Assembly: GCA_001767455.1 (NCBI GenBank)
Contig: MELC01000044.1
Coordinates: 30,163 to 94,162, forward strand
Direction: 5' to 3'
Source of the DNA: Acidobacteria bacterium RIFCSPLOWO2_12_FULL_66_21
GTDB lineage: Bacteria > Acidobacteriota > Vicinamibacteria > Vicinamibacterales > 2-12-FULL-66-21
Length of the DNA: 64,000 nucleotides
Shown here: in pieces, positions 1-58,696 of the stretch
Numbering within the stretch: position 1 is the first letter of the stretch
Layout: each line of letters starts with the position of its first letter
Translations under genes and position numbers: made by a program
Notes under the pieces: model-generated
The model's database searches: none
What the model saw: only the letters and a program-made list of their open reading frames with translations
What the model was told of the DNA's origin: nothing

Positions 1-54
1 TTGAGGTCTTCCACGATCTCGTCGCGCGCGGCGCTCGCGCCCGCGCGCTTCTTG

Positions 55-606
55 TCAGGTGGCATATTTGAGCTCGTCAATCAGGCATTGACCTTTGCAC
101 ACGCCGCACGTGCGACTCGCCGGGCACGACGCCTGGAATGCGCGAAACTGCCTCAGGAACTGCCGGCTGACTGGCGCGCCCGACGTCAGAAACTGCAGGA
201 AATGCACGAGCCGCTGGCCCGTCGAGTGGCTGATGAGGTGCTCGATCTTGCAGCTGTCGATCTCGGCCTGCGCCTCGGCAATGCCCAACACATCACGCAG
301 GAATGTCTTGACGATGACCCGCTTCGCCATGACCGAGTGAACGACCCTGAGACCCTTCGGCGAGAGCTTGACGAGGCGATGTTCGTCCGTCTGCACCCAG
401 CCGCGCTTCTTGAGTGTTCGCAGGTTGATCGAGACGCTCCCGCGCGTGATGTTCAGGCGGCGGGCGATGTCGGACACGCGCGCCCAGCCCCCGTAGGCCT
501 CCCCCACTTCGTAAATCGCGAGCAGGTGATGTGCGGCGCTGTGCGTCAGCTCGTTGGCTTCGAATTCCTTCCACGTGTCCATGGCGTTGTTTGATATATC
601 ATACAC
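55..606 (-). CDS. DtxR/MntR-family metal-dependent transcriptional repressor
   Basis: 183-aa ORF. Winged-HTH 'WARVSDIARRLNITRGSVSINLRTLKKRGWV' is followed by a DtxR-type dimerisation/metal region 'RVVHSVMAKRVIVKTFLRDVLG...SCKIEHLISHSTGQRLVHFLQFL'. Unusual Cys-rich tail 'CPASRTCGVCKGQC'. Alternative start at 582. Confidence 0.8.
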   Translation of the reverse strand: MYDISNNAMDTWKEFEANELTHSAAHHLLAIYEVGEAYGGWARVSDIARRLNITRGSVSINLRTLKKRGWVQTDEHRLVKLSPKGLRVVHSVMAKRVIVKTFLRDVLGIAEAQAEIDSCKIEHLISHSTGQRLVHFLQFLTSGAPVSRQFLRQFRAFQASCPASRTCGVCKGQCLIDELKYAT

Positions 607-617
607 GCGATTGGGTT

Positions 618-637
618 GTCAAATTATTCACTTTGAC
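618..637. promoter_or_regulatory. Inverted repeat GTCAAA-N8-TTTGAC in an AT-rich patch just upstream of the DtxR-like gene (candidate operator/promoter)
   Basis: GTCAAA (618-623) and TTTGAC (632-637) are reverse complements. They lie 12-31 nt upstream of the repressor start at 606, in a locally AT-rich stretch of a GC-rich genome. Confidence 0.3.
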
Positions 638-679
638 TGGCTCGCAGAACATCGGGCACATCTTCTTGATCTCCTTTGA

Positions 680-1129
680 AGCACGACTCGCACAGCGAGC
701 CGCTCGACGTCCAACTTCCCTAATACACCGGGCACCCGGTTCTCGCTCGTACTGGACATCACGCCGGGGCCGAAAATCCACGTGTACGCTCCGGGCGCGA
801 CCGGGTACAAACCGATCGCGCTGAGCCTCGAACCGCAGCCCGGTGTCGTTCTCAGGGAGACTCACTACCCGAAGTCGGAGGTGTACTTCTTCCAGCCGCT
901 CGACGAACGGGTGCCCGTGTTTCAGCGGCCGTTTCGCGTCGTGCAGGACGTCATGCTCGACGCGTCGCGGGATGGCGCGGCTGCACTTCAGGGGAAGACG
1001 AGCGTCACGATCACCGGCACGCTGAACTACCAAGCCTGCGATGACAAGATCTGCTTCACCCCGAAGTCGGTACCACTCACGTGGACGATTGGCGTGAGGC
1101 CGCTCGACCGCGAGCGGGTGAAGCGGTAG
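680..1129 (+). pseudogene. DsbD N-terminal (thiol:disulfide interchange) domain-like fragment, lacking its 5' end and signal peptide
   Basis: Frame is open from 680 (after TGA 677-679). Translation 'FSLVLDITPGPKIHVYAPGATGYKP...TGTLNYQACDDKICFTPKSVPLTW' matches the DsbD-N/DsbC-like fold motifs (HVYA..., YQACdd.iCf.P). There is no ATG and no signal peptide; the only in-frame start is GTG 782, inside the domain. Confidence 0.5.
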
Positions 1130-1254
1130 TCAAGACTCGAGGCGCACAGGCTCTCGATTGCTACCGCGGCTTCAGAACGGCCATCTGCAATCCGGGGGAA
1201 ATCCGGCGCTTGACTTGGCTGGCCACGGGTCCATACTGAGCCCGATCCGTACCA

Positions 1255-1496
1255 GTGAGAACAACCTGCTTGCGGCGCAGCACAGCGACCTCGCTGGCGG
1301 CTCTGTGGCTGACGACGGCCGCGCCCGCTCAATCGCCGGCGAGCACGGCATCCGCCTTCCGCGCGAATGCGCAGCATACCGGAGCCTTCGACGCACCGGG
1401 CGTCCCACAACTCAACGGCCTCGTCTGGAAGTATCAAATCGAGGGACGGTGAGGGCGGTCGTCAACCGCGGGCGCCGGCTCACCGTAAAGAGCTGA
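1255..1496 (+). pseudogene. PQQ-like/BamB-like beta-propeller protein, N-terminal remnant (signal peptide plus first blade, then frameshift and stop)
   Basis: 'MRTTCLRRSTATSLAALWLTTAAPAQS' is a signal peptide. 'FRANAQHTGAFDAPGVPQLNGLVWKYQIEG' is typical of the start of PQQ-like propellers. TGA at 1450-1452. Propeller-like sequence 'GTVRAVVNRGRRLTV' continues in another frame and stops at 1496. Confidence 0.45.
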
Positions 1497-1534
1497 CCAT
1501 TGTCCCACAGGGACTTGCTGATTCTTCAGGCTCG

Positions 1535-1558
1535 AAACCGCGGGTAGTGGTCAAGTTT
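1535..1558. repeat. Left end of transposon: 8-bp target-site duplication AAACCGCG (1535-1542) plus 16-bp terminal inverted repeat GGTAGTGGTCAAGTTT (1543-1558)
   Basis: Exact reverse-complement match to 4744-4759. The identical 8-mer flanks both ends on the outside. Confidence 0.85.
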
Positions 1559-1598
1559 CAGCCGCGACTACGGAACGAGGATCTCGTAGTCGCGGCTG
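1559..1598. terminator. Perfect 14-bp stem / 12-nt loop hairpin directly inside the left TIR, 3' of the 83-aa ORF
   Basis: CAGCCGCGACTACG (1559-1572) pairs with CGTAGTCGCGGCTG (1585-1598). It lies 12 nt beyond the stop of the minus-strand ORF 1610-1861. No U-tract follows, so it could be a terminator, an insulator or a transposase-end structure. Confidence 0.4.
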
Positions 1599-1609
1599 AT
1601 GGTCCCCTG

Positions 1610-1861
1610 CTAGGCAGCCTTCGGCTGCGCGATCAAGTTGCGGTACGCGTAATTGTCCGGCATCTCGGTAACGAGAATGCGGTCATTGGCGTCCATGTGC
1701 TTGATGCAGTAGTTGGCAATGGCCAGCGGGGTCGAGTTGCTGTGATTGACCGTCCATTCGGACTCCAATACGCGGACCGCGCCGAGGTCAGCCAGCGCCT
1801 GCCAGAGTGGCTTGTAGTCCTTGCCGGGGGTGATCAAGTCGTACGAGATTAGGTAGCGCAT
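1610..1861 (-). CDS. Small (83 aa) hypothetical protein with a predicted ferredoxin-like (Cas2/VapD-like) beta-alpha-beta-beta-alpha-beta pattern; transposon passenger
   Basis: 'MRYLISYDLITPGKDYKPLWQALADLGAVRVLESEWTVNH...DANDRILVTEM' shows alternating hydrophobic strand/helix periodicity like stand-alone Cas2-type proteins. The assignment is tentative. Confidence 0.5.
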   Translation of the reverse strand: MRYLISYDLITPGKDYKPLWQALADLGAVRVLESEWTVNHSNSTPLAIANYCIKHMDANDRILVTEMPDNYAYRNLIAQPKAA

Positions 1862-2108
1862 GGGTCGAGGCCCTCACGGCTGGTTAACGAAAGCCGTTGA
1901 CAGATCTCGACTGAGCGCGCTAATCTTGGGTTGTATTCGTTCCCAATCGAAGCTCGCAAGTCCGGGCGATTCAGTCTGAAGCTGAATCGCCCGTTCTGCG
2001 TACGACCTGCCCGCGCTGGCCGTGCAGCTCAGGCGATCGAATTATACCAGCGTTGACGCCTTTTCTTCGCCCCAAGATTTTGGGGTAGGCGACTCGCCCT
2101 AGCGGATT

Positions 2109-2956
2109 CTAAGCGGCGCGTGTCTCCGTCGCGTCGAGCAGCCCCACGATTTCAGCGATGGACCACACGTGCGACGAGATGCCAGCTTCCATAGCGGGCG
2201 TCACGCGGAGCGTCTGATGCACGCGGCAGAAGTTGTAGTGCATGAAATGTAGCGCGACGGCCGCTTCGTGATTCGCCAGCTTCTTGGAGAAGCCATTCGT
2301 CAGACGAGTGAACCGGCGCATCCCCATCCGCATCGTGAGATTCTGACGCTCGACGTACGACGTGCTGATGTACTTCGGATTCGGGTTGCCTGTTATTACC
2401 TCCGTCGTGCTGCTGAGAATCTTAGCCGGGCTGTACCGCGTCTCGTTCTCAGGCGCGGCCCCGTAAACCTTCGTCAGCATCGCACGTAATCCACGTCTGC
2501 GCCGAATGCATCCTCGACCGCGTTGATGTACACCTTGTGGCCGTCCGTCGTGAGCTGCACGCGCGTGCAAATACGACTCGCCACGTCGTTCATGAACGTG
2601 AACGCCGACCCCGCATCGCGCGAACCTACGAGCCACGACACGATCAACTTGCTGTTCGCGTCGAGCGCCGTCCAGGTCCACACGTCGCCGAATCCGAAGG
2701 TGCCGCGCTTTTCCTCGGGAACGTTCTTCGCCTTCGCGTAGCAGAACTGCCAAATCTCATCGTACTCGATCCGCTTGCTGCGCAGGTCATGCACGGTCTC
2801 CGAGTGATACCGCGCGCACGCATCGCCAAGCTCCGCCAGCAGCTTGAGGATCGTCGGCTTGGAGACGTTCGTCATGCGCGCCGTCGCGCGGACGCTGTTT
2901 CCCTCGACGAGCGCCGCGACAACCGCAACCCGCTTGGCCGTGCTCAGCTTGTTCAT
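2109..2956 (-). pseudogene. IS1-family DDE transposase, split by a -1/+2 frameshift near 2478-2485
   Basis: Two overlapping ORFs (2474-2956 and 2109-2753). HTH 'NSVRATARMTNVSKPTILKLL'. 'EYDEIWQFCYAK', 'LTTDGHKVY' and 'YVERQNLTMRMGMRRFTRLTNGFSKKLANHEAAVALHFMHYNF' are collinear with E. coli IS1 InsB ('EMDEQWGYVGAK', 'MTDGWPLY', '[38 protein letters not shown]'). The frames join at 'GADVDYVRC*' / 'MLTKVYG', and no slippery heptamer is visible. Confidence 0.85.
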
Positions 2957-3080
2957 AAGAGTAATATACTTGAGCGGTCAAGCATTATCAAGTACTGATA
3001 TGCAGTAGTATCCAAGCCGATAATCGAACTGTACTTTCCTTGAAGCGCATGGTACGATCAAAAGGCGAAGGCTTCTGAGA

Positions 3081-3899
3081 ATGGCTCTGCTCAGGGTTCG
3101 GATTGAACTCAAGCGGGACGGCAAAGGCATTGAATTGCCAAAGCTGGCGGAGCTGTCACGAGAAGGCCAAAAACTCCTGCGGATGGTCGCTGAGGACTCT
3201 GAGTTGCCCCAACAGGGCACTTGGGTGGCTCAGGACTTCTACAACCAAGGCATCGGATTCGATGCGCTCTACGAACAAACCGACGTCGATGAGCAGCAGG
3301 CTAATGCGTACCTGCGGTTGCTGGATCACGTCGTGACGGCGGGTCCAGAAAGCAACTGGCACATTCCGGGCGTTCGTCCTGCGACGTTGGTGCAATCAGC
3401 CAGGGTCGCAAAGGTCGCTGGCGAGCATGAGCTGGTACGGCTCGGTGTGTACAACGGCGGCCCTTCCGTGCAATGGAAACCCCTGGCGAAGACCCGCGCC
3501 GAAATGATCATCGAGCATTTCGAGTCGGTTATTGAGTACCGAGGGATGGTGCAGGGGATCATCCACTCGCTGTACAAAGAATCGCAGCCGCCGTATTTCG
3601 ACATCAGAGACATCGCCAGCGGCGACCTGATCAAGTGCTATTACTCTGTGCCTCAGTACCGTGACGTTCACGCTGTCCTGCAACGCCGAGAGGCGGTCGT
3701 TATTGTCGCCGGCTGGATTCGGGCGAAGCGTCTGGACCGCGAGATTCAAGACCTTCGGGTTGAACAAATCCAATCAACCGATCCCCTCAGTCAAAAGCAG
3801 CTTGAGTCTTTCTTTGGGTCGGCGCCAGGATGGACCGGCGATTTGACCACTGATGATTTCATTGAGCGCGCGAGGCGCAGCAGCACTGATGGCGAATAA
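3081..3899 (+). CDS. Orphan 272-aa protein with an antitoxin-like C-terminal tail; putative partner of the downstream PIN nuclease
   Basis: No domain recognised over about 240 aa. The C-terminus 'LESFFGSAPGWTGDLTTDDFIERARR' resembles the 'FGSAKG...DDFD' tails of DUF2281-type PIN-partner antitoxins. The stop overlaps the PIN start by 11 nt. Confidence 0.6.
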   Translation: MALLRVRIELKRDGKGIELPKLAELSREGQKLLRMVAEDSELPQQGTWVAQDFYNQGIGFDALYEQTDVDEQQANAYLRLLDHVVTAGPESNWHIPGVRPATLVQSARVAKVAGEHELVRLGVYNGGPSVQWKPLAKTRAEMIIEHFESVIEYRGMVQGIIHSLYKESQPPYFDIRDIASGDLIKCYYSVPQYRDVHAVLQRREAVVIVAGWIRAKRLDREIQDLRVEQIQSTDPLSQKQLESFFGSAPGWTGDLTTDDFIERARRSSTDGE

Positions 3900-4617
3900 G
3901 CCTCGCGTGTATATCGACTCGTGCTCATACATCGATGTGGCCAAGGGGCGCACAAAAGCCGCGTGGAAGACGGGAGAGGAAGACAGAGCGCAGCAGCTTT
4001 GGTTTATCGAGACGCTGTTGGTAGCGGCGCTCAACGGCGACGTAGAGATCTACGGTTCGACATTGATCCTGGTCGAGTGTCTATTTACCGAAACTCGCGA
4101 AGCGATCCCGGAAGAAACCAAAGAACTCTTCAAGAATCTGCTGTCCGCTGGAAATCCAGTACGCCAGGTTGCCGTTGACCCCTTCATTGCTGAACGGGCA
4201 AGGGATCTTCTGTGGCGCGATGGAATCATGTGTGGAGGGTCAGCAGATCAGGTTCATGTGGCAACAGCGCTGGAACTCCATTGCGAAGAGTTCATTACGA
4301 CCAACAGGAAGAAAGGCCCGCTCCAACCATCTGTCGCGTCACAATTGGTGAAACATGGTTTGCGCGTGATTCTGCCGGATCAAACGCAGTGCATTCCAGA
4401 AGCCTACAAAAAGCCGATTCTTGAGGCGGCCGGAGACTCTATCCGGATTTCCGCCTCCACCGTGCCGACGCCGCCCGTTTCGCAATCTCCTGGCGACGAG
4501 CAGGCGAAAGAGCCCGAGCCCGCGCCACTCCGCCGCGCAATCCGCCTCGGCGGCCCAGAGCCACCGCCGCCGGATTCTTCTCCGACCGATGCTCCGCCCC
4601 CTCGGTCAAAGCGATGA
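3889..4617 (+). CDS. PIN-domain (VapC-like) ribonuclease with a long Pro-rich C-terminal tail
   Basis: Acidic PIN quartet in the expected order: 'RVYIDSCSYID', 'LILVECLF', 'GGSADQVHVATALE', 'EFITTN'. The ATG at 3889 overlaps the upstream stop (ATGGCGAATAA). An alternative ATG lies at 3853. The last ~60 codons are antisense to ORF 4439-4693. Confidence 0.75.
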   Translation: MANKPRVYIDSCSYIDVAKGRTKAAWKTGEEDRAQQLWFIETLLVAALNGDVEIYGSTLILVECLFTETREAIPEETKELFKNLLSAGNPVRQVAVDPFIAERARDLLWRDGIMCGGSADQVHVATALELHCEEFITTNRKKGPLQPSVASQLVKHGLRVILPDQTQCIPEAYKKPILEAAGDSIRISASTVPTPPVSQSPGDEQAKEPEPAPLRRAIRLGGPEPPPPDSSPTDAPPPRSKR

Positions 4618-4693
4618 TCTGCTGAACGGTGTCGAAGGCGATCTCGTTCTCGTCCCTTGTTCGCGTTTTGACTGTGCTTGACCGTTTAGGCAT
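4439..4693 (-). CDS. Small basic protein (84 aa) with conserved 'KNPAAVALGRRGG...ARA..LS..RR.EIAKRAA.ARW' motif, function unknown
   Basis: From memory, the motif recurs in many short bacterial ORFs. Start taken at 'MPKRSS' (4693); the ORF track begins at 4711. Confidence 0.5.
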   Translation of the reverse strand: MPKRSSTVKTRTRDENEIAFDTVQQIIALTEGAEHRSEKNPAAVALGRRGGLRGGVARARALSPARRQEIAKRAASARWRRKSG

Positions 4694-4743
4694 GGACTCA
4701 GTATCGCACATCGGCGAACCGTCCGTCAGCCTGAACGATTTTC

Positions 4744-4767
4744 AAACTTGACCACTACCAAACCGCG
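4744..4767. repeat. Right end of transposon: TIR AAACTTGACCACTACC (4744-4759) plus TSD AAACCGCG (4760-4767)
   Basis: Mirror of 1535-1558. Confidence 0.85.
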
Positions 4768-4842
4768 CCGGTGTTTCCTCCCGATTGTCCGTGGAATTGC
4801 CCCTGTTGCCGCCCGAACACGCGCCGAGTCTTGTGGCCCGTG

Positions 4843-4949
4843 ATCTGCATCGCCGAGGGTAAACCATCCTGTTCCCCACACCGTCTAAGGGGAAGAACAT
4901 AGGAGCCCCGCCGCTATTCCTCGTCCAGGGAACACTGGATCGGCTGGTG
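4843..4949 (+). repeat. 107-bp direct repeat, copy 1: dead duplicate of the padR leader plus the first 17 codons
   Basis: 105/107 identical to 7529-7635. The differences are A4901 vs G7587 (ATG becomes ATA, so the start codon is lost) and G4942 vs T7628. Confidence 0.9.
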
Positions 4950-5017
4950 AAATTCCTCCGCTTCTTGTTCTCGACGAATTTGTCGGAGGTGCTGCTGGTC
5001 CAGTTCGCTGCGGCCTT

Positions 5018-5556
5018 TCACGTAGCACGAGTACCACGGCGGACGATCAGACCTCCGACGACGCCCGACACGATCGACCCGCTCAGGATTCCGACCTTGG
5101 CGGAGTCGAGCAAGCTCGTGCCATCAAAGGCGAGGGCGGCAATGAACAAGGACATCGTGAAGCCGATGCCGCCCAGCCAAGCGCATCCGTGCAACGCCGT
5201 CCAACCGACGCCCTCTGGAAGCGAGGCCAGGCGTAACCGAACTGCGGCCAGCGCAGCCGCGGTGATCCCGAGCGGTTTTCCGACGACAAGTCCGAGGATC
5301 ACCGCAAACGTCACGCTCCATCGTTGATCCACTGATGAACGCTGAGCGATAACCCATGTCCTCCCGCGGCAATGACGATCGTCGTCGCCAGAAGACGATG
5401 GTACGCGTCAGCCCACCCGGAATTGGCCACGATGAGCGCGGCGCACGCGCATGCGACAAGTAAGGCCCCTCCGGCGGCTTCCGTTCGAAAGAATTCTTGA
5501 AAGGGACTCGTTGAGCGGGACGGCGCTTCGCGAGCCCTTCGATTGCTGACCCTCAC
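5018..5556 (-). pseudogene. nhaA: Na+/H+ antiporter NhaA remnant (N-terminal ~75 aa joined out of frame to C-terminal ~100 aa)
   Basis: N-terminal part: 'SPFQEFFRTEAAGGALLVACACAALIVANSGWADAYHRLL...LSLSVHQWINDG'. C-terminal part: 'VILGLVVGKPLGITAAALAAVRL...LHGCAWLGGIGFTMSLFIAALAF'. The junction with frame change lies near 5311-5332. The central ~250 aa expected of NhaA are absent. Confidence 0.75.
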
Positions 5557-6058
5557 ACCGACGTCTCTTCCCAGCCCCGAACCGAATAGAGTAGCGGCCT
5601 GGTCCAGAGGCTCTCGAGACCCTCCAGGATATCGGACGCCCAGTTGAAGACGTTCCGTCCTGCGACCACCTTCCGCATGGCCCGCATACGCGTCGCCTGC
5701 TCCTCGCTCGTCATGTTTATGGCTCTTGCGAGGGCTGCTGCGAATGCATCGATGGCCACAGGCCCTCATTCGCGAAGCCCCCGTAGTACGCGGAGAAGGC
5801 GGGCTCCTCGAGCCACAGACGCCGAAGCACGTACGATGGGCTCTCGGGCGGTACCCGCACCTTGTCGGTCGCATCGACGACCAACCGGTCCGCCGGGCCA
5901 GCCCCGTGGGCGATCCACACGCCACCTCGTTCGCGCATCAGGGCGTCGAGCGCCACGGCGACACCCCCCGTCGCGGCTCTCACCGCAATTCGGCCATCCT
6001 CATCCCGGGTGTGGAGGTACGGCTCACGGTTGGACACGACGATGAGGGGGCGAAGCAC
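5553..6058 (-). pseudogene. otsA: Trehalose-6-phosphate synthase OtsA remnant (N-terminal ~100 aa plus C-terminal ~65 aa, internal deletion with frameshift near 5750)
   Basis: N-terminal part: 'LIVVSNREPYLHTRDEDGRIAV..TGGVAVALDALMRERGGVWIAHG...YVLRRLWLEEPAFSAYYGGFANEGLWP'. C-terminal part: 'IDAFAAALARAINMTSEEQATRMRAMRKVVAGRNVFNWASDILEGL'. The stop TGA overlaps the nhaA GTG (GTGA at 5553-5556). Confidence 0.75.
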
Positions 6059-6070
6059 GTGTACATCGAG

Positions 6071-6409
6071 TTCGCCTGCCTGCGCCAACCCCCGGCGAAA
6101 CAGAATCGGTCCCACGAGCTCGTGAATCGCGATCGACGCGACCAGCATCAGCTGCACCTGGTTGCCCCATCCCGGAAACTCGGTGGCGACGATGGACGCA
6201 AACCCCAGGGTAATCCCGGCCTGAGACACCAGGCCCGTCCACGCGTAGCTCCCGATCGGCTCGGGAAGGCCCGACAGCTTCACGCCCACCCCAACGCCCA
6301 GCCTGATGAACCCGAGTCGGACCGCGGACAAGGCGAGCGCGCTGAGCCCGATGGCGGCCACTGCGTCGAGCCGAAGGGTCGCGCCGACCGCTACGAAGAA
6401 AACCTCAAA
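6071..6409 (-). pseudogene. Cation:proton antiporter (CPA/Kef-type) C-terminal membrane fragment, fused in frame to the otsA remnant
   Basis: 'FFVAVGATLRLDAV...AWTGLVSQAGITLGFASIVATEFPGWGNQVQLMLVASIAIHELVGPILFRRGLAQAGE' corresponds to the last helices of Na+/H+-exchanger family proteins. No N-terminal part is present. Confidence 0.6.
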
Positions 6410-6732
6410 ACAGGGAGCCACCGCTGTACCCGACGCCGCATGGCTTCCCCGTGTGGCGATGGTTCCGCCCCATGATTGCCCACGACCCGACACACCTCGA
6501 TGTTACGAAGCCGGCCGATCGCATCGGCCTTTGCTCGACCGGTGATCACGACGCACGGAAAGAGCTTGCTCGCACGCCTGAGCAATCGTCGCGTGGACGC
6601 ACGCATGGCGGCGTGTGCCGGCGCGTTGACCAGCGGTGCGAGCGTGCCGTCGTAGTCGAACGCCAGCAGGACATTCGACCACGCGAACATCTCAAGCAGA
6701 TCTCGATGACCGCGCTCGCGGCCATTGAGCAC
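6391..6732 (-). pseudogene. otsB: Trehalose-phosphatase OtsB N-terminal remnant (HAD motif I region only)
   Basis: 'LLAFDYDGTLAPLVNAPAHAAM...LFPCVVITGRAKADA...VVGNHGAEP'. Homology ends near 6408 and a stop follows at 6391. The likely start is ATG 6690 or GTG 6732. Confidence 0.7.
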
Positions 6733-7488
6733 AACGACTTCGCCCGCCTTCCCGGTGGCGTGTTCAGAAGGGCGTACGTGCGAGCGTTCGCGGCCGAGGT
6801 GGGGTTGAATGCCGACGAGCTCGTGCGCGAGTATCGCGCGCGATTCGAGACTGAACTACCAGCCGGGCCGCTTTTACGTCACGAAGCCGATTGGAAGCAT
6901 CGTCTTCGTCTCTCTCACCGGTTCCCGGCCGTGTTGGTAACCGCCGTCGGAATATTGATCTGCGGGTGGCTGATCTTGGAGCGTGACCAGGTCCCTGACG
7001 AGGCATCGGACGGGCGAATGCCGAGCGCAGTGGAGGGCGACCTCCCAGAGAACACCGCGCAGACAGACGATTCGGATGGCACGGAGGAGGTCGCCTTCGC
7101 CAAGGCGGCCGTCACCGAGACGGGCGCCCAGTCGTTGCGACTGGAGATTCGACTCAATGGACCGTGCTGGGTCTCCGCCGTGGCAGACGGAGAGCGTGTG
7201 GTCTATCGCCTGATGCAGCCCGGTGAGCGGACGCTGGTTGAAGCGCGCAGCGTGATCACGCTCCGTGTCGGCGACGCAGGCACGGTCGCCTATTCGATCA
7301 ATGGAGCGACAGGCCGACCACTCGGCAGGAACGGCGAGGCCGTCACGGTCCGCATCACCAATGACAACCTTGGAAGTCTGTACGCGGAGCCTGCGAGTGT
7401 GACTCCCACCGAAGGTGCGGCCACGCAAATCGGGTCGGGGCCTGGCCGCAATCTGGCAGCGAATGGCCAACGAGCAGTCGCCACGTAG
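6706..7488 (+). CDS. RodZ-like protein (TM segment plus C-terminal DUF4115); N-terminal HTH apparently truncated
   Basis: 'LAAIEHNDFARLPGGVFRRAYVRAFAAEVGLNADELVREY' is the end of the RodZ HTH region. The TM segment is 'FPAVLVTAVGILICGWLIL'. DUF4115-like 'LRLEIRLNGPCWVSAVADGERVVYRLMQPGERTLVEARSVITLRVGDAGTVAYSING'. The first ~35 aa of a normal HTH are missing, and the 5' end overlaps the otsB remnant. Confidence 0.6.
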   Translation: MTALAAIEHNDFARLPGGVFRRAYVRAFAAEVGLNADELVREYRARFETELPAGPLLRHEADWKHRLRLSHRFPAVLVTAVGILICGWLILERDQVPDEASDGRMPSAVEGDLPENTAQTDDSDGTEEVAFAKAAVTETGAQSLRLEIRLNGPCWVSAVADGERVVYRLMQPGERTLVEARSVITLRVGDAGTVAYSINGATGRPLGRNGEAVTVRITNDNLGSLYAEPASVTPTEGAATQIGSGPGRNLAANGQRAVAT

Positions 7489-7528
7489 ACGATGTGACCT
7501 TCGGATTACTCAGAAACGAGTCGGCGCC

Positions 7529-7635
7529 ATCTGCATCGCCGAGGGTAAACCATCCTGTTCCCCACACCGTCTAAGGGGAAGAACATGGGAGCCCCGCCGC
7601 TATTCCTCGTCCAGGGAACACTGGATCTGCTGGTG
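7529..7635 (+). repeat. 107-bp direct repeat, copy 2 (functional padR leader, RBS and first 17 codons)
   Basis: See 4843-4949. Offset between copies is 2686 bp. Confidence 0.9.
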
Positions 7636-7917
7636 CTCCGGGCACTGGCCTCCGGCGCCATGCATGGGTACGGCATCGCCACCAAAGTGCGCGAGCGTAC
7701 TGGCGGCGTGCTGAGCATCGAGGATGCGGCGCTCTATCAGTCGCTGCATCGGCTCGATCGGCAGGGCCTGGTCGATGCCGAGTGGGGGCCATCGGAGAAC
7801 AACCGCCGCGCCCGCTTCTACACGCTCACGGCAGCCGGGCGGAAGCGCCTGCGTGAAGAGACCGCCAACTGGCGGCGCTACTCGCGCGCGGTGGAAGCCG
7901 TGCTGCAAGACGCATGA
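7585..7917 (+). CDS. PadR-family transcriptional regulator
   Basis: 'QGTLDLLVLRALASGAMHGYGIATKVRERTGGVLSIEDAALYQSLHRLDRQGLVDAEW...RRARFYTLTAAGRKRL'. The stop overlaps the permease start (ATGA). Confidence 0.9.
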   Translation: MGAPPLFLVQGTLDLLVLRALASGAMHGYGIATKVRERTGGVLSIEDAALYQSLHRLDRQGLVDAEWGPSENNRRARFYTLTAAGRKRLREETANWRRYSRAVEAVLQDA

Positions 7918-10559
7918 AACAACGCCCGTTCTGGTACATCCGGCGTCGATCGGTGCAAGCCGAGGTGGACGAGGAGTTGCGCCTGCATCTCGAGATGCGA
8001 GTTGAAGAGCTCCGATCCACCGGGATGCCCGTCGAGGATGCGCGCCGGGAGGCGCTGAAGCAGTTCGGCGATCTCGAGGGAGCGCGGGAGTACTGCCGGC
8101 GGCAGGATGAGGAAAAGGAGAGCGAGATGCAACGATCCCTGATGTTCCAGGACCTCGGGGAGGACATCCGGATTGGCCTCCGGAGCCTGATGCGCGTCCC
8201 CATCCTGTCTCTGACGGTCATCGTAACGGTGGGGGTCGGCATCGGCGCGACCGCGGCCATCTTCAGCGCGATCGACGCCGCGCTGCTTCGGCCGCTGCCG
8301 TATGCGCATCCCGAACGCCTCGTGCGCATCTACACCGATGCGCCGCCGTTCAAATGGCGTTTCTCCGCCGCAGACTACCTCGCGTTTCGCGAGCAGCAGA
8401 CGCAATTCGAAGAGAGCGCCACCTACACCGACAGGACGGTGATTTACAGCGACGGCGTCTCGTCCGACGTGGCGCGCGCACGGGTGGTCTCGTGGGCGTT
8501 CTTCTCGGTGCTCGCCGTCCGGCCCGCGATCGGCCGCGACTTCGCCGAACCGGACGGGCGGCCGGGCACGCCACCGTCCGTCGTGGCCAGTCACGCCTTC
8601 TGGCAGCAGCGTCTCGGAGGCCGTGCGGATGCGATCGGCCGGCCGATCAAGCTGGATGGCGCCGAGCACACGGTCATCGGTGTACTGCCGGCGCTGTCGG
8701 GGCCGCTCGAACGTCGCCAGGACCTGTTCATCGTTCAGCAGTTCACCCCGCCGCGGCGCAAGGGTCCCTTCCTCTATTCGGTCGTCGCGCGGCTCCCCGA
8801 AGGGACGGATCGATCCCTGGCCGCGGGCGAGCTGCGCGCCGTCAACAAACGGATCTTCCCGATGTGGAAGGCCTCGTACCAGGACGACAGGGCCACCTGG
8901 GGCATGGAGGATCTCAAGGGCGCTGTCGTCGGTGACGTGCACGCAATTGCCGGCCTGGCGCTTGGATCTGTGGCGCTGGTGTGGCTGATCGCATGCGCGA
9001 ATGCGTCGAACCTGCTGATCGCGCGCGTGACGAGCCGCCGGCAGGAACTGGCCGTCCGCGCCGCGCTCGGCGCGTCGCGCGGACGCGTCGTGCGGTATCT
9101 CCTCGCGGAGAGCGCCGTGCTCGCCACAGGCGCCGTTGCGCTCGGCGCGGGCGTCGCCTGGGCCGGCGTCCAACTGCTGCAGGGGATGGGCTCGACCTAC
9201 TTTCCACGGACGCAGGAGATGGCGTTGGATACGCGGGTGGTGTGGCTGCTGGCGGGTCTGGCAACCTGCAGCGGACTGATCTTCGGGCTGGTGCCAGCGC
9301 TGCACGGCGTGGGCGGCTCAGTCGATGCATCGTTGCGATCGCTCGGGCGATCGTCAACCGGCAACCTCGCGGTCCGGCGTCTTCGCCGTGCGCTCGTGGC
9401 CGCACAGTTCGCCATCGCGACGCCGCTCCTCATCGCCGCCGGCCTGCTCCTCTCGAGCCTGAATCAGATGAAGAACGTCGACCTTGGGTTCGATCAGCGC
9501 AATGTGATCACCGGATCGATCCGGCTGCCCGCCGCACAGTATCAGGATGCAGGACGGGTACGAGTGTTCTGGGACGAGCTGGCGCGCCGCGTGACCGCGC
9601 TGCCGGGCGTGGCGGGCGTCGCGTTCACCGACGGCTTGCCGCCCAACGGCGCGAGTAATCGCAATAACTTCGATCTCGAGGATTTCCCGACACCTCCAGG
9701 ACAATCGCAGCCAGTCGCCCCGTGGGTGTCGACGACGCCGGAGTATTTCCGGGTGCTGGGTCTCAGGTTGCTCGAAGGGCGGCTGCTCGACGAACGCGAT
9801 GCACTGACGGAGAATCTCGAAACGGTCGTGGTCGATCGCGCGTGGGCGCGGCGCTTCTTTCCTGACGGAAGCGCCGTCGGCAAGCGGTTCCGCGAAGGCG
9901 GATGCACGGCATGTCCGTGGACCAGCGTCGGCGGCGTGGTGAGCGAGGTGAAATACCTCGGCCTCGACAAGCCGGATGACGGCACCGTCTATTGGCCGAT
10001 GCGAGGAACCGAGCGCGGGCTCGATCGGTTTCTCGTGGTCCGCACGCACGCGAGTCCATCGGGCGTATTGCCGGCCCTGCAGCGGGCGGTGCGCGAGATC
10101 GACCCGTCCGTGCCGCTCTCGAAGGTCGCGACGATGAACGATCTCGTCGCGCAATCGCTCGAGCGTCCGCAGTCGCTGTCGTTCCTGGTGGCGGCGTTCG
10201 CGCTCGTGGCGCTCGTGCTGTCGGTCGTCGGCATCTACGGCGTGATGGGGTACTACGTGCAGCAGCATCGGAAGGACATCAGCATCCGCATGGCGCTCGG
10301 CGGCAGCTCCGCCGACGTGCTGCGGCTCGTGATGGGCGACGGCATGCGCGTCGTCATCGCGGGGATCTTCGTCGGCGCGCTCGCCGCGCTCGGCCTGACA
10401 CGATTGATGTCGAGCCTCCTGTTCGGCGTCAGCGCCGCAGACGCGCTCACGTTCGTGACCGTGAGCGCCGGGCTGGCGATCGTGGCGCTCGCCGCGTGCT
10501 TCGTGCCGGCCCGACGAGCGGTCGGTATCCAGCCGGCAGCCGTCCTGCGAAATGACTAG
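7914..10559 (+). CDS. ADOP-family duplicated MacB/FtsX-like ABC permease (881 aa)
   Basis: N-terminal helical region 'VDEELRLHLEMRVEEL' is typical of PadR-coupled ADOP proteins. It has two MacB-type periplasmic plus FtsX 4-TM halves ('VGIGATAAIFSAIDAALLRPLPY', 'IACANASNLLIARVTSRRQELAVRAALGASRGRVV', 'KDISIRMALGGSSADVLRLVM'). Confidence 0.9.
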   Translation: MKQRPFWYIRRRSVQAEVDEELRLHLEMRVEELRSTGMPVEDARREALKQFGDLEGAREYCRRQDEEKESEMQRSLMFQDLGEDIRIGLRSLMRVPILSLTVIVTVGVGIGATAAIFSAIDAALLRPLPYAHPERLVRIYTDAPPFKWRFSAADYLAFREQQTQFEESATYTDRTVIYSDGVSSDVARARVVSWAFFSVLAVRPAIGRDFAEPDGRPGTPPSVVASHAFWQQRLGGRADAIGRPIKLDGAEHTVIGVLPALSGPLERRQDLFIVQQFTPPRRKGPFLYSVVARLPEGTDRSLAAGELRAVNKRIFPMWKASYQDDRATWGMEDLKGAVVGDVHAIAGLALGSVALVWLIACANASNLLIARVTSRRQELAVRAALGASRGRVVRYLLAESAVLATGAVALGAGVAWAGVQLLQGMGSTYFPRTQEMALDTRVVWLLAGLATCSGLIFGLVPALHGVGGSVDASLRSLGRSSTGNLAVRRLRRALVAAQFAIATPLLIAAGLLLSSLNQMKNVDLGFDQRNVITGSIRLPAAQYQDAGRVRVFWDELARRVTALPGVAGVAFTDGLPPNGASNRNNFDLEDFPTPPGQSQPVAPWVSTTPEYFRVLGLRLLEGRLLDERDALTENLETVVVDRAWARRFFPDGSAVGKRFREGGCTACPWTSVGGVVSEVKYLGLDKPDDGTVYWPMRGTERGLDRFLVVRTHASPSGVLPALQRAVREIDPSVPLSKVATMNDLVAQSLERPQSLSFLVAAFALVALVLSVVGIYGVMGYYVQQHRKDISIRMALGGSSADVLRLVMGDGMRVVIAGIFVGALAALGLTRLMSSLLFGVSAADALTFVTVSAGLAIVALAACFVPARRAVGIQPAAVLRND

Positions 10560-10599
10560 CTGGCTCGCGCCGACTGCACCCGCTGCCCGTGGTGTTCCT

Positions 10600-12021
10600 T
10601 CACTTCGTCCGTCCGGCCGCGAGGTCCACATATCCCACCCCGTCGCGGTACGTAATCCGGGTGCCGAACGGCTCTGACAGCCTGATCAAATCGTCGATAA
10701 TCTTTTTTCCCATCTCCGGCTCCGCTGGCATCGGCCGGCCGCGCTCGAACGCCGGCTTCCCGTGGCCCAGCGAGGTCGGGTGAAGCGCCAGCTCCACCAG
10801 CGTCTTGCCCCTGAACCGCGGCACGGCAATCACGGCTTGCCAGATCAGCGGATCGGCGGGGAACCCGCGGCGGTCGCCGTCGTAGCGGCGATCGTTGAAG
10901 TCGGCCACGTGCGCGTCCGCCCCGAGGTTGTACGGCTCGTAATTCTCGCTCGGCAGCCGGAGCAGCGTCTCGTTCTGGAAGATGAAATCGCCGAGGCTGT
11001 AGAGGATTGGCTTGCCCTTGTAGACCTCGATGCCGCGCAGCACGTGCGGGCCATGGCCCACGAACACGTCCGCGCCGCTGTCCACCATCGCGCGCGCGAA
11101 CGTGACGAGGAACTGCGCCGGCACGAGGCGGTCTCGATTCCCCTCGTGCGAGTGGATCGCCACGATCGTGTAGTCGGCCAGTCGCGCCGCGCCCCTGACG
11201 GCGGCGGCGATCTCCTTCAGGTCTCCCTCGTGCGGCGCCGTTCGGATGCCGGGCGTGTCGCCGGCCACCACGCGGGTGCCGAGCACGTTCAGGGATTGTG
11301 GCGCGCCCTGCGGCGCGCTTCCGCCTCGGCCGCCGCCGGCCAGCCCAGACGCCGTGAGCGCCTCGCGCAGCTTTGCCAGCCCGTCCGGCGTCGTCGTGTA
11401 CGTCGTCGTATACCGCAGCGGATTCAAGCCGGGCCGTGCCGGCATGTCGCCGCGGGAGCGCCCGGCGCGGGAGTGGTCCGGGAACGTGGAGGCGACCGAG
11501 ATGAGCGCGACGCGCGCCCTCGCGGCCTCGAGGAACTTCGGCTCGCGTGCCTCGAGGAGACTCTCGCCGACGCCGGCCTGCACCAGCCCGGCCGCGGCAA
11601 CGTGCTTCGTCGTGAGACGCATCCCCTCCACCCCGTAGTCTCCGGAGTGGTTGTTCGCGCGCGACACGAGGTCGAACCCGGCCCAGACCAGTTCCTTCGC
11701 CAGCGCCGGATCGGCGCGCATGTACGTGCCGCCGCTTTCGTTCATCGGGTACGGCTCGTAGTCGTGGAACAGCATCTCGAGGTTGGTGAAGGCGACGTCG
11801 GCGCCGCGAATCAGGCCGATCATCCGGAGGAAGGCCGGTTCCGTGTACACCGAGAGCCGGCGCGTGATGATGGAGTCGCCGGTGAGCGCCATCGAGAACG
11901 CGTCCGCGACAGCCTGGTCGGGAAGGGGCCCGGCAGGCCCCCCTGCCGGCCGCTGAGCGGCCAACAGAGCCGACGAAATCAGCAGCACCGATGCGAGCGA
12001 CACGTGTGTTCGCATTCTCAT
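10600..12021 (-). CDS. CapA-family (PGA_cap metallophosphatase-like) protein, secreted
   Basis: Signal peptide. 'ADVAFTNLEMLF', 'GFDLVSRANNHSGDYG', 'VAIHSHEGN' and 'VFVGHGPHVLRGIEVYKGKPILYSLGDF' match CapA/PgsA-like motifs. Confidence 0.8.
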   Translation of the reverse strand: MRMRTHVSLASVLLISSALLAAQRPAGGPAGPLPDQAVADAFSMALTGDSIITRRLSVYTEPAFLRMIGLIRGADVAFTNLEMLFHDYEPYPMNESGGTYMRADPALAKELVWAGFDLVSRANNHSGDYGVEGMRLTTKHVAAAGLVQAGVGESLLEAREPKFLEAARARVALISVASTFPDHSRAGRSRGDMPARPGLNPLRYTTTYTTTPDGLAKLREALTASGLAGGGRGGSAPQGAPQSLNVLGTRVVAGDTPGIRTAPHEGDLKEIAAAVRGAARLADYTIVAIHSHEGNRDRLVPAQFLVTFARAMVDSGADVFVGHGPHVLRGIEVYKGKPILYSLGDFIFQNETLLRLPSENYEPYNLGADAHVADFNDRRYDGDRRGFPADPLIWQAVIAVPRFRGKTLVELALHPTSLGHGKPAFERGRPMPAEPEMGKKIIDDLIRLSEPFGTRITYRDGVGYVDLAAGRTK

Positions 12022-50310: not shown

Positions 50311-50688
50311 TCAGGGGTTGAGCTGCGATTCGACGAGCGCCCGCACGTCCCCCGGCAGCGTGCGGGGATCGAACGGCTTGATCAAGACGCCCGCCGCTCC
50401 AAGAGCCCTCAGGCGCTCGACCTCGACCCGCATGGCCTTGGCCGTAAGGAAGATCACCGGGGTCGCGGCCGTGGCAGGTTGCGAGCGGAGCGCCGCCAGC
50501 GTCGCAGAGCCGTCCATCACCGGCATCATCATGTCGAGCAGGATCACGTCGGGCTGCTCGTTCTGGGCTTTGCGCACACCCTCGGCGCCGCCGGCGGCCT
50601 CGACCACCTCCATGCCGCCCAGGCGACTGAGGCTCAGCCGCGCAATCGACCGGATGTCCGCGTCGTCGTCGATGATCAAGACCTTCAT
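50311..50688 (-). CDS. Single-domain (CheY-like) response regulator
   Basis: 'MKVLIIDDDADIR...VILLDMMMPVMDG...VIFLTAK...IKPFDP'. The start overlaps the kinase stop (ATGA). Confidence 0.9.
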   Translation of the reverse strand: MKVLIIDDDADIRSIARLSLSRLGGMEVVEAAGGAEGVRKAQNEQPDVILLDMMMPVMDGSATLAALRSQPATAATPVIFLTAKAMRVEVERLRALGAAGVLIKPFDPRTLPGDVRALVESQLNP

Positions 50689-53555
50689 GATCGCGTGCCC
50701 GTATCTGTGCCGTGCGCCAGCGGAATCCGCCGCAGCTCCACCACCAGCCGTCGGAAATCCCCGTCGGAGCCCTTGGACTTGGTGAGAAAGCGCGTCGGGC
50801 CCAGGCGAAGGCGCCCGCGCTGTTCCTCCGTGAGGTCGCGACCTGTGTAGACGAGCACCGGAATGTCTCTCAGCTCGGGTCGCTGACGCATGGCGTCCAC
50901 GACATCGAAGCCGTCGCGTTCCGGGAGCCCGACGTCGAGCACCATGAGCGCGGGCGGCTCGGTCTCGGCCACTCGAATCGCCTCCTTGCCGGTTGTCGCG
51001 GTTCGGACCGCGATCCCTTCCCGCGAGAGCTGGCGCGCCATGACGTCGAGCAGTGTCAGGTCGTCCTCCACGAGCAAGACGTAGCGGGCCTGCGCGGCGA
51101 CACGACCCCGCTCCAGGCCATCGCGAATCGCCGCCAGCAGTTCGCGGCTGTCGACGCGTTCCGGGAGAAAGAGCACCAGGCTGTCCGACAACGCCTCGGG
51201 CGACACCACGAGTGGGCTCCCGAACAGAATCACCGGTATCGCCTCGAATGCTGGTTCCTGTCTGACGCGCGCGAGCAGCGCCGAGTCGCTTTCGAGCAGG
51301 ATAACGGCGACGTCGCCGCCCTGGAGCACCGCCCACGCAGCGTCCGCGTCCGGCACCGTGATGACGGCGTAGCCGGCCTGCGTGATCACTTCTTCGAAGG
51401 ACCTTCGGCACTCGGCGTCGTCGCCGCAGACCAGGATCGCGCGGCCGAGCCGCGGCGCGACAGGCCTGGGCGTAGTCGCGACCCGAAACCAGAAGGTGCT
51501 GCCGCCTCCTTCCTCGCTCTCGACGCCGATCGTGCCGCCATGCTGATCGATGGTCGACTTGCAGATCGCGAGCCCCAGGCCTGTGCCTCCCTTCTCACGC
51601 GCGTCGGACGTTTCGACCTGCCGGAATCGCTCGAAGATGGCCCGACGGTAGGCCGCGGGAACGCCTCGGCCGCGGTCCGTGACCCTGAACTCGACCCAGC
51701 CTTCTCCAGGCTGGACGCCGATCGTCACCACACCAGAGGGCGGCGAGAACTTCACGGCGTTGGACAGCAGATTGACGAGGACCTGCACGATCCGATCGGC
51801 GTCGGCCCAGATCGTCGAGGAGACCTCGGACGCTTCGATGGTGATGCCGTGCTCCCGTGCGAACGGCCCCACCGACTCGATGGCGCGGCGCAGGACCGAC
51901 TCGGCGGAGACCTGCCCGAACTGCAGCTCGATCTTGCCGGTCTCGAGCCGCTCGAGATCGAGGATGTCGTTGATGAGCGCGATCAGCCGAACCGCGTTGC
52001 GCTCGGCGATGGCCACGACCTCGACGACTTCGTCGGACAGCGCGCCAACCGCGCCCGAGGCCAGAAGGCCGAGCGACCCTCTGATCGACGTGAGCGGTGT
52101 CCGCAACTCGTGGCTCACCGTTGAGAGGAACCCCTGCTTGAGCCGTTCGACGTCCTTGAGCCGCTCGACCGTCTGCTCGGCGACGAACTTGGCGTTTTCC
52201 AGTTCGACGTTCTTCTCCTGGAGCATCTGCTCGATGTGTTTGCGCTCCGTGACGTCGCGCGCCGCCGCGAACACCCCCTGCAGCGTCCTGTCCCGGTCGT
52301 AGAAGGTGGTCGCATTGTAGGAGACCACCGTGGTCTTGCCGTCCCTGGCGCGCGCGGTGAGTTCATAGTTGGTGACCTTCTTCTCGCGCAGCACCAGTTT
52401 GATGGCCGCCTCGGCCCGCGCCGGATCGGTGAAGTAGTTCTTGAACGGCGCGCCGATCAGCTCGTCCCGCGTGCACCCGGTGAGCGCCTCCATCTGCCGG
52501 TTGACGTCGGTGATGATACCGGCCGGGTCGGTGGTCATTATCGCATCGATGTTGGACTCGATGAGCGAGCGCGTGTAGAACTGCTGATCGCGCAGGCGCT
52601 GATCGAGCTTCTGCTGCTCGGCTTCGACCCGCTTGCGCGCGGTATTATCGGTGCCAATCAACAGGTAGCCGATGATGGCGTCCTGCGCGTCGCGCAGCGC
52701 CGTGACCGACACGATGGCTGGAAAGCGGCTCCCATCCTTCCGGATGTAAGTCAGTTCGTAGATGTCCTCGATCCCGCGCGAGGCCTTGAAGACCAAGGCC
52801 TCGAAGCCCGGCGTGATCGTGGTAGCCAGCTCGGCGCTCAATGCTTCGGCACGCGCGATCACTTCCTGCGGGTCGGAAATGTCGGCCGGCGTGATCTGGT
52901 TCATCACTTCGGCGGCCGTGTAGCCCAGCATCCGCTCGGCGCCGACGTTGAAGATCTGAATGACGCCCTTCTCGTCGGTGGCGATACTCGAGAAGTTGGC
53001 GCTGTTGAAAATCGCGCTCTGCAGGGCCCCCGCCTGGAGCAGCGCCTCTTCCGCCCGCTTGCGCGCGGTGTTGTCGGTGCCAATCAGGAGATAGCCGATG
53101 ATGGCGTCCTGCGCGTCGCGCAGCGCGGTGACGGACACCACCGCCGGGAAGCGGCTCCCGTCCTTGCGGATATAGGTCAGTTCGTAGATGTCCTCGATGC
53201 CACGGGAGGCCTTGAACACCAGGGCCTCGAAGCCCGGCGTAATCGGGGTGCCGAGCTCGACGCTGAGCGCCTTGGCGCGCGCGATCACCTCCTGCGGATC
53301 GGAAATGTCGGCCGGGGTGATTGTGTTCAGTACCTCGGCGGCCGTGTAGCCGAGCATCCGCTCGGCGCCGACGTTGAAGATCTGAATGACACCCTTCTCG
53401 TCGGTCGCGATACTCGAGAAGTTAGCGCTGTTGAAAATCGCTTTCTGCAAGGCCCCGGTCTTGAGCAGAGCCTCTTCGCGTCGGACCTGAACAACGACAT
53501 CCACCGCGCCGGCAGCTTCGTCGGCAATGGCAGGATCGTAAGTGTGAGCGGACAT
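50685..53555 (-). CDS. Hybrid sensor histidine kinase: three PAS domains, HisKA, HATPase_c and two REC domains
   Basis: 'FLSTVSHELRTPLTSIRG' (H-box), 'LLSNAVKFSP', 'VTDRGRGVP' and 'GGTGLGLAICK'. REC domains '...VAVILLESD...' and 'VLLVEDDLTL...MVLDVGLPERDG...TKS'. ATG 53555 is preceded by GGAGG. Confidence 0.9.
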   Translation of the reverse strand: MSAHTYDPAIADEAAGAVDVVVQVRREEALLKTGALQKAIFNSANFSSIATDEKGVIQIFNVGAERMLGYTAAEVLNTITPADISDPQEVIARAKALSVELGTPITPGFEALVFKASRGIEDIYELTYIRKDGSRFPAVVSVTALRDAQDAIIGYLLIGTDNTARKRAEEALLQAGALQSAIFNSANFSSIATDEKGVIQIFNVGAERMLGYTAAEVMNQITPADISDPQEVIARAEALSAELATTITPGFEALVFKASRGIEDIYELTYIRKDGSRFPAIVSVTALRDAQDAIIGYLLIGTDNTARKRVEAEQQKLDQRLRDQQFYTRSLIESNIDAIMTTDPAGIITDVNRQMEALTGCTRDELIGAPFKNYFTDPARAEAAIKLVLREKKVTNYELTARARDGKTTVVSYNATTFYDRDRTLQGVFAAARDVTERKHIEQMLQEKNVELENAKFVAEQTVERLKDVERLKQGFLSTVSHELRTPLTSIRGSLGLLASGAVGALSDEVVEVVAIAERNAVRLIALINDILDLERLETGKIELQFGQVSAESVLRRAIESVGPFAREHGITIEASEVSSTIWADADRIVQVLVNLLSNAVKFSPPSGVVTIGVQPGEGWVEFRVTDRGRGVPAAYRRAIFERFRQVETSDAREKGGTGLGLAICKSTIDQHGGTIGVESEEGGGSTFWFRVATTPRPVAPRLGRAILVCGDDAECRRSFEEVITQAGYAVITVPDADAAWAVLQGGDVAVILLESDSALLARVRQEPAFEAIPVILFGSPLVVSPEALSDSLVLFLPERVDSRELLAAIRDGLERGRVAAQARYVLLVEDDLTLLDVMARQLSREGIAVRTATTGKEAIRVAETEPPALMVLDVGLPERDGFDVVDAMRQRPELRDIPVLVYTGRDLTEEQRGRLRLGPTRFLTKSKGSDGDFRRLVVELRRIPLAHGTDTGTRS
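52626..53471 (-). repeat. Tandem 423-bp (141-codon) duplication encoding two near-identical PAS domains
   Basis: 52626-53048 vs 53049-53471. For example, 'catccgctcggcgccgacgttgaagatctgaatgac' occurs at both ~52930 and ~53353. The protein copies differ at only about a dozen of 141 positions. Confidence 0.85.
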
Positions 53556-53735
53556 ATCCCAACCTCCGTTGAGTCCTTCACAGGTCTTTCGAGGCCGATC
53601 ACGCGGCCCGGGTCGCGAGAGGATGGTCGCTCGGCGCTGGCCGACTATGACTGATCCCGGCATTCGCCGCTGTGCAATCCGGCACAGCACGACCCCTCGC
53701 GTGTGCCCGGCTTCAACGCGGCAAGCGCCGACAGG

Positions 53736-56135: not shown

Positions 56136-56249
56136 GTCCATTTCGGGGGTCTGACCCCAGTTTGGCCGCCGCATGCACATTTCGGGGTCAGACCCCGTTT
56201 CGACCGTCGCGTGCACATTTCGGGGTCAGACCCCGGTCTGGAGGCCCGC
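56136..56249 (+). repeat. Three tandem ~38-bp repeats, each containing the palindrome CGGGGTC(A/T)GACCCC
   Basis: Units at 56136-56173, 56174-56211 and 56212-56249. The first 24 nt of units B and C are identical (TGCACATTTCGGGGTCAGACCCCG). Unit A carries the complementary centre (GGGGGTCTGACCCC). The array ends at the RBS (GGAGG 56240-56244) and the TTG start of the permease. Confidence 0.85.
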
Positions 56250-58694: not shown

Positions 58695-58696
58695 CC

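Follow-up and report, generated by a model that had tools for sequence, protein, structure and literature searches.

Gene remnants left by pseudogene decay under a deletional bias are familiar from Rickettsia and Mycobacterium leprae, through the work of Andersson & Andersson and of Mira, Ochman & Moran. The model of microhomology-mediated break-induced replication (MMBIR) predicts complex, discontinuous events with microhomology (PMC2621351). Here we describe a chain of gene remnants from Acidobacteria bacterium RIFCSPLOWO2_12_FULL_66_21, on the minus strand of positions 5018-6732 of a 64,000-nucleotide stretch of contig MELC01000044.1 (hereafter the window), whose pieces are homologous to the OtsB (PF02358), OtsA (PF00982), and NhaA (PF06965) proteins of Escherichia coli. 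The region is a population-wide pseudogene scar and not a new system, and very probably it is what is left of an osmoadaptation operon (trehalose plus sodium/proton antiporter) after ordinary pseudogene decay by illegitimate recombination. Its junctions are real and exactly positioned, its ancestral gene order has been recovered, and essential parts of its genes have been lost.

As in Rickettsia and M. leprae, an unneeded operon has been eroded, its fragments keep their original order and orientation, and relatives are intact. Unlike those host-restricted, reduced genomes, the genome considered here belongs to a free-living, large-genome groundwater Acidobacterium, and its lesions are five deletions that range from 77 nt to 4.4 kb; small insertions or deletions (indels) and stop codons are absent, and one boundary carries templated insertions. 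The locus shares with MMBIR and with fork stalling and template switching (FoSTeS) (Hastings et al. 2009, PMC2621351) its clustered breakpoints, discontinuous segments, short or absent microhomology, and a templated copy at a junction; it differs in that the outcome is almost pure deletion, one junction is blunt, and several events could equally have given the end state. Compared with otsBA of E. coli, the OtsA of this lineage is fused to a cation/proton antiporter (CPA; PF00999) in one protein of about 900-1000 aa, otsB lies about 3 kb upstream with two genes between, and none of these genes is complete in the window.

The sequence-only reading had recognized six consecutive fragments (otsB-N, antiporter-C, otsA-N, otsA-C, nhaA-N, and nhaA-C), and a three-frame reading of the minus strand finds all six where it had put them, borne out by Pfam and by DNA alignment to intact relatives. 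OtsB-N matches positions 2-71 of 235 in PF02358 (Trehalose_PPase, E=4e-7); OtsA-N and OtsA-C match, in different frames, positions 3-107 (E=2e-6) and 426-472 (E=3e-5) of 473 in PF00982 (Glyco_transf_20); and NhaA-N and NhaA-C match, again in different frames, positions 2-61 (E=1e-12) and 284-373 (E=3e-29) of 374 in PF06965 (Na_H_antiport_1). The fragments span 15-25% of their folds, and neither the OtsA GT20 domain (about 320 of 473 profile positions absent) nor the NhaA domain (about 220 of 374) is complete. The antiporter piece alone has no Pfam match; its DNA shares 90-97% identity with intact relatives, in the C-terminal part of their PF00999 domain. Across the window pieces, DNA identity to the intact genes of relatives is 83-97%, which places the fragment matches far beyond chance. 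No second copy of otsA, otsB, or nhaA occurs within the 64-kb window.

The fragments make up five kept blocks, all on the minus strand, which we give in the direction of transcription. The otsB fragment (6405-6702) covers residues ~7-110 of 250, as placed by tblastn with full-length relatives, keeps the FDYDGTL motif of the haloacid dehalogenase (HAD) type, lacks a start codon and the C-terminal half, and is 96.3% identical in DNA to positions 1312-1609 of the related locus L019. The next block (5754-6404) is a contiguous 651 nt aligned without gaps to L018 6012-6662 (96.8% identity); the Na+/H+-exchanger domain contributes its final ~115 residues (6404 to ~6063), and the GT20 domain, in frame with it, its first ~102 (~6062 to 5754). 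The OtsA C-terminus (5553-5753) consists of ~66 codons and the native stop (5553-5555), at 92-93% identity to L018/L019 7632-7868, and is followed by the first 35 nt of the otsA-nhaA spacer (5518-5552), identified by alignment with L019. The N-part of nhaA (5317-5517) keeps codons ~8-75 (...STSPFQEFF...HQWINDG), with 87% identity to L014 1067-1269 and 93% amino acid identity to residues 8-75 of P0219, and the C-part (5018-5316) keeps ~98 codons and the stop (5018-5020), with 82% identity to L014 1737-2034. By tblastn, the blocks correspond to OtsB 7-110, residues 435-658 (mid-gene) and ~981-1044 of the antiporter-OtsA fusion, NhaA 8-75, and the last ~100 residues of NhaA.

The ancestral arrangement is preserved in co-occurring relatives (L019, L018, and L015), where rodZ faces away from otsB, which is followed by a PDZ gene, a 391-aa gene, the CPA::OtsA fusion, and nhaA. 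In L019, from the same sample as the window-type contig L005, RodZ is encoded on the strand opposite to OtsB (250 aa), the PDZ protein (428 aa), the 391-aa protein, and CPA::OtsA, and a spacer of ~110 nt then leads to the start of nhaA (MTAEPQESRSTSPFQEFF), where the contig ends. The fusion is a single open reading frame (ORF; L019 4699-7833, 1044 aa) with PF00999 at residues 173-534 and PF00982 at residues 559-1025. In L015 (MEKT01000103.1, Acidobacteria bacterium RIFCSPLOWO2_02_FULL_65_29), the one locus that a scan of genome contigs with RodZ returned, intact otsB and rodZ stand head to head ~1.2 kb apart, and intact syntenic orthologues are also found in L022-L024. A metagenome scan with the 234-aa ORF of the window gave 80 loci, and in all 80 the antiporter C-terminus is contiguous and in frame with OtsA-N, OtsA-C lies at a constant 969-970 nt beyond OtsA-N, and otsA is undeleted. 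The antiporter-to-OtsA transition (~6063-6070) is thus a natural domain boundary and not a junction: of the four junctions that had been proposed from the letters alone, those near 6408, 5750, and 5320 stand, as junctions A, B, and C below, and the one near 6070 falls away. The fusion of PF00999 and PF00982 in a single ORF is itself a property of all 80 loci (L018-L097, 52-94% identity), and neither the fusion nor the locus is described in the literature that we searched, full texts included. For the region downstream of nhaA, the P0146 contig (L100) offered no useful synteny.

Set against the intact syntenic loci, about 9 kb has shrunk to 1.7 kb through at least five deletions; alignment set their end points, and their microhomologies were deduced by comparison with relatives of 83-97% identity. 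Deletion R removed ~1.29 kb relative to L015, namely the first ~6 codons of otsB, the first 33 codons of rodZ, and all between (window 6405-6702 aligns to L015 852-1149, and window 6682-7375 to L015 2425-3113); its junction at 6698-6702 joins truncated otsB head to head with truncated rodZ at AGATC, within an imperfect repeat of ~25 nt. Deletion A, with its junction at 6405/6404, joins otsB codon ~110 to the C-terminal part of the CPA domain, and 4402 nt are absent relative to L019: the 3' half of otsB, the PDZ gene, the 391-aa gene, and ~430 N-terminal CPA codons. Deletion B (5754/5753) took 969 nt of the otsA interior and deletion C (5316-5318, about 5317) ~0.7-0.9 kb of the nhaA interior, both leaving out-of-frame junctions. 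Deletion D (5518/5517) took only 77 nt, which in L019 comprise 53 nt of spacer and the first eight nhaA codons, the native ATG and seven more. The sequence shared at the junctions shortens from 5 nt at R through 3 nt at D (TCC), 2-3 nt at C (GG), and 1-2 nt at B to 0 nt at A.

Multiple independent internal deletions in a dispensable locus had been among the explanations offered by the sequence-only reading, along with a suggestion to determine their end points and microhomology; the five deletions defined here, in an operon that relatives keep intact, supply both. Two of its details do not hold in the same way. The GTG that overlaps the otsA stop (GTGA) had been taken for the start of nhaA, a start that is spurious because deletion D removed the native ATG. 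The observation that termini are retained and cores lost is weakened, as a true gene terminus is present in only two of the five kept blocks, which leaves little of a rule that ends are spared.

The decay reaches past 5018-6732 on both sides. To the right, rodZ (6706-7488, plus strand) has lost its promoter and its first 33 codons, which encode most of the helix-turn-helix (HTH) domain, such that Pfam finds only profile positions 21-62 of HTH_25 in addition to RodZ_C; intact RodZ of L015 begins MEQRATDIGSRLRHAREQRGLTLRDIANITKIST. Three bases after junction R, the ATG at 6706 corresponds to an ACG (Thr34) in L015, and this ATG may have restored a start of translation to a predicted, HTH-less RodZ. 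To the left, the nhaA stop is followed by 18 nt of flank and then by two short segments. The first, 51 nt long, comes from a P-type cation ATPase gene (4949-4999, plus strand; KFLRFLFSTNLSEVLLV) and is 90% identical to L012 17101-17151, where the gene carries PF00702/PF00689 and has the opposite orientation. The second is a 107-nt duplicate of the 5' end of padR (4843-4949, plus strand), comprising the upstream region and the first 17 codons; it differs from its parent at two positions, at one of which ATG has become ATA. The parent, at 7529-7635 (plus strand), spans the promoter region and the beginning of padR (7585-7917), which is intact. A copy of nearby sequence beside a second short segment is what templated insertion at a junction leaves, and this compound left junction looks like the product of such a replicative process.

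Could the chain be an assembly artefact? The sequence-only reading had allowed for a chimeric or collapsed contig, a possibility that the contigs themselves make hardly credible. A look-up of the neighboring PadR protein found 23 contigs. Window 2800-8000 (5.2 kb) is 100% identical in L001 (ERZ4903185, 84 kb), L002 (ERZ27254836), L003 (GCA_001767055.1, MEKV01000041.1, Acidobacteria bacterium RIFCSPLOWO2_02_FULL_67_36), and L006, and window 3267-9000 is 100% identical in L017 (JGI 3300025322). A 1-nt indel is the sole difference of L009 over 2800-8000, the original Anantharaman scaffold (L007) has the same layout at 99.4% identity, and L004 and L008 span only part of the region. The junctions are all present, in identical form, in seven or more metagenome assemblies that were made independently of one another, on different samples and with three pipelines (MEGAHIT k141, JGI, and the NCBI metagenome-assembled genome, MAG), which argues that the contig is not chimeric. 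Moreover, no junction has more than 5 nt in common between the parts it joins, too short an overlap for a de Bruijn graph, so the junctions needed spanning reads to be assembled; the junctions are neither private to one assembly nor placed at the shared k-mers that a graph chimera requires. The neighborhood is nevertheless hard for assemblers, as an artefact would lead one to expect: contigs L005 and L010 end at 6649, a gap of 10 N interrupts scaffold L007 at 6710, and L016 and L098 are mosaics of co-occurring strains. The breaks are explained by coexisting relatives that are 96% identical to otsB-N (the sample of L005 also contains L019 and L024), and breaks, gap, and mosaics alike reflect strain mixtures. 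The fragment chain is real and not an assembly error. As a separate observation, 10 of the 12 mismatches of L007 are packed into 76 nt of OtsA-C (L007 5761-5836, window 5661-5736), and the abrupt blocks of divergence in L007, L016, and L098 could be either strain-mixture chimeras or a sign of frequent homologous recombination among co-occurring Acidobacteria.

The pieces have the attributes of pseudogenes: homology over partial length, an intact syntenic orthologue in relatives, and loss of starts, frames, or domains. Deletion has taken the native start from otsB, the CPA gene, nhaA, and rodZ, and the reading frame is broken at junctions B and C. With each block lacking a start codon, a promoter, or a frame partner, the region, to judge from its sequence, cannot provide OtsA, OtsB, CPA, or NhaA activity. 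It could instead be proposed that the pieces serve as new short or chimeric proteins, such as the 234-aa ORF of CPA-C plus OtsA-N, or as a regulatory RNA under selection. Each block does retain an open frame, dN/dS (the ratio of non-synonymous to synonymous substitution rates) against the closest relatives is still below 0.25, and gene callers and NCBI annotate the pieces as hypothetical proteins (OFW09998.1 and OFW22745.1 are two such accessions, and OFW09997.1 is likewise a deposited fragment ORF; the 104-aa NhaA-C ORF has no exact protein match, the gene callers having picked another start). We nevertheless consider a function very improbable. The low dN/dS is inherited from a functional ancestor, native starts, ribosome-binding sites, and promoters are all gone, so small a part of each fold is covered, and the arrangement is conserved in no diverged lineage, all 80 relatives being intact. 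Neither a tRNA scan nor an Rfam scan of positions 1-12000 returned a match. The further possibility that these are full-length members of short, genuine families, which the sequence-only reading had named as the finding that would overturn it, was rejected: the short database matches are contig-end pieces or frameshifted long-read copies of full-length genes.

The same comparisons bear on the timing of the decay. Gapless alignments of 651, 298, and 236 nt to the closest intact relatives show 96.8%, 96.3%, and 92.8% identity, with pairwise dN/dS of 0.23, 0.20, and 0.09, against 0.05-0.17 among intact genes. On the branch leading to the window there are six synonymous and five non-synonymous substitutions, counts too small to judge relaxed selection. 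There are no small indels or stop codons within the blocks, and this, with the mildly raised dN/dS, suggests that most of the divergence predates inactivation; relative to sequence divergence, the decay is, on this evidence, comparatively young. In the wider group, nhaA may be decaying repeatedly. In P0230 (L014 1043-1969), NhaA jumps from '...GLEIK' to 'AGLILLLL...' and also carries a frameshift, and in P0141 the NhaA core is lost in frame. That these two are the same lesion was rejected, as the internal nhaA deletions are different and unrelated to that of the window.

How the deletions arose can be addressed from their ends and their order. Deletion ends that share only 0-5 nt point to RecA-independent illegitimate recombination, by replication slippage, template switching, or end joining. 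In the history that we favor, selection on the operon, still intact in co-occurring relatives, would have been lost first, and at least five deletions (R, A, B, D, and C) would then have accumulated in a short period, probably in several events. Chromothripsis-like shattering and religation is excluded by the preserved order and orientation of all five blocks, expected in about 1/3840 cases under random rejoining; this order is what one expects of a dead operon that lost one piece after another, and also of serial template switching in the forward direction.

The principal competitor to stepwise decay is that all junctions, including the padR copy and the ATPase piece, stem from one serial template-switching rearrangement of the MMBIR/FoSTeS type that skipped forward along the operon. 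Several features that favor it weigh against ordinary decay. Five deletions of at least 77 nt without small indels in 1.7 kb are not usual for slow pseudogene decay, and the compound left junction looks replicative, the 107-nt copy being templated from 2.6 kb away and lying beside a second short foreign segment; the indel spectrum and the left junction are no less compatible with one complex event than with several. No trustworthy intermediate haplotype, bearing a subset of the deletions, was found among ~100 related loci. The breakpoints are confined to a single locus, clustered within ~9 kb of ancestral sequence with at least eight junctions between 4842 and 6702 of the window, and the five blocks are collinear with the ancestor, with microhomologies of 0-5 nt at their junctions. 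The divergence of the padR copy from its parent (2 of 107 positions) is also compatible with the post-inactivation divergence of the blocks. However, junction A has no microhomology and junction B only 1-2 nt, sequential neutral deletions in a dead operon give the same end state, and simultaneity cannot be demonstrated from one end-state haplotype. L098 (P0248), if real, would also speak against a single event, as it has an intact CPA N-terminus and junctions B and D without A. It was considered as an intermediate and downgraded after block-wise comparison: of its three blocks, one is ~12% divergent from L018, one is identical to L018, and one is identical to the window. Perfect matches that switch from one population to another mark L098 as a mosaic, probably a chimera that the assembler made of co-occurring strains, or else a recombinant of very recent origin. 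L016 shares junctions R, A, and B and has a 20%-divergent rodZ from 6753, 48 nt past junction R. Taken together, we regard one template-switching rearrangement as the origin of all junctions as possible and rather unlikely, and we hold it slightly less probable still that the whole scar is a single MMBIR-like replication-restart event that was then fixed in a wild, uncultured Acidobacterium population. Stepwise decay of a dead operon is the reading that we retain.

A transposon next to the remnants might seem a more direct cause, through intramolecular transposition of the kind that yields adjacent deletions mediated by an insertion sequence (IS). A 3217-bp element of low GC content (~55%, against ~65% in its flanks) occupies 1543-4759, and a gap of 80-250 nt separates this DDE-transposase element from the remnants at their left edge. 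Its ends are perfect inverted repeats of 16 bp (GGTAGTGGTCAAGTTT), flanked by an intact 8-bp target-site duplication (AAACCGCG) at 1535-1542 and 4760-4767, the signature of a clean insertion with no flank deletion since. IS-mediated adjacent deletion would place a junction at an IS end and destroy the duplication; no deletion junction adjoins an IS end, and with the duplication intact we conclude that the element did not make the deletions, a cause about as far-fetched as misassembly. The element encodes a split DDE transposase (2474-2956 and 2109-2480) with weak IS6/IS1-type Pfam matches, a Cas2-like ORF of 83 aa (1610-1861, a weak match), a PIN-domain ORF (3853-4617), a 90-aa ORF (4439-4711), and a 272-aa ORF that belongs to no family. 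Because of these passenger genes, it is unusually large for an IS. PADLOC, run on the island genes, found no defence system beyond the weak Cas2-like match.

Elsewhere in the window there are three paralogous genes for duplicated-FtsX/MacB-type permeases (7585-10559, 56211-58694, and 58037-61117), the latter two inferred from DNA repeats of 67-73% identity. In the first, the permease proper (7914-10559) carries PF12704 plus PF02687 twice and has the padR gene directly before it; the padR context is known for this one. Just upstream of the permease ORF at 56211, two tandem 38-nt units (56146-56221, 82% identical) contain the palindrome-like GGGGTC(T/A)GACCCC and may be an operator or a terminator-like element. 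Two 300-nt direct repeats (52613-53338, 84% identical, 426 nt apart) lie inside the minus-strand ORF 50685-53690 and are probably an internal protein-domain repeat.

For annotation, OFW09997.1, OFW09998.1, and the other fragment ORFs are pseudogene fragments and should be labeled as pseudogene remnants. For method, the locus illustrates that a suspicious chain of fragments can be real, and that nearby breaks and mosaic short contigs can reflect strain mixtures instead of errors in long contigs. It also shows, base by base, how deletions poor in microhomology can rapidly erode an operon in a free-living bacterium whose community still holds intact alleles, which makes it usable for studying deletion mechanisms in nature; were the scar the product of a single event, it would parallel, in a natural bacterial population, the complex rearrangements seen in human copy-number variants and in starved E. 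coli. For the organism itself, the population has lost otsB/CPA::otsA/nhaA at this locus, which should not be counted among the capabilities of the MAG, and its neighbors in the same samples keep it, a difference that matters for inferring osmoadaptation and metabolism from this MAG.

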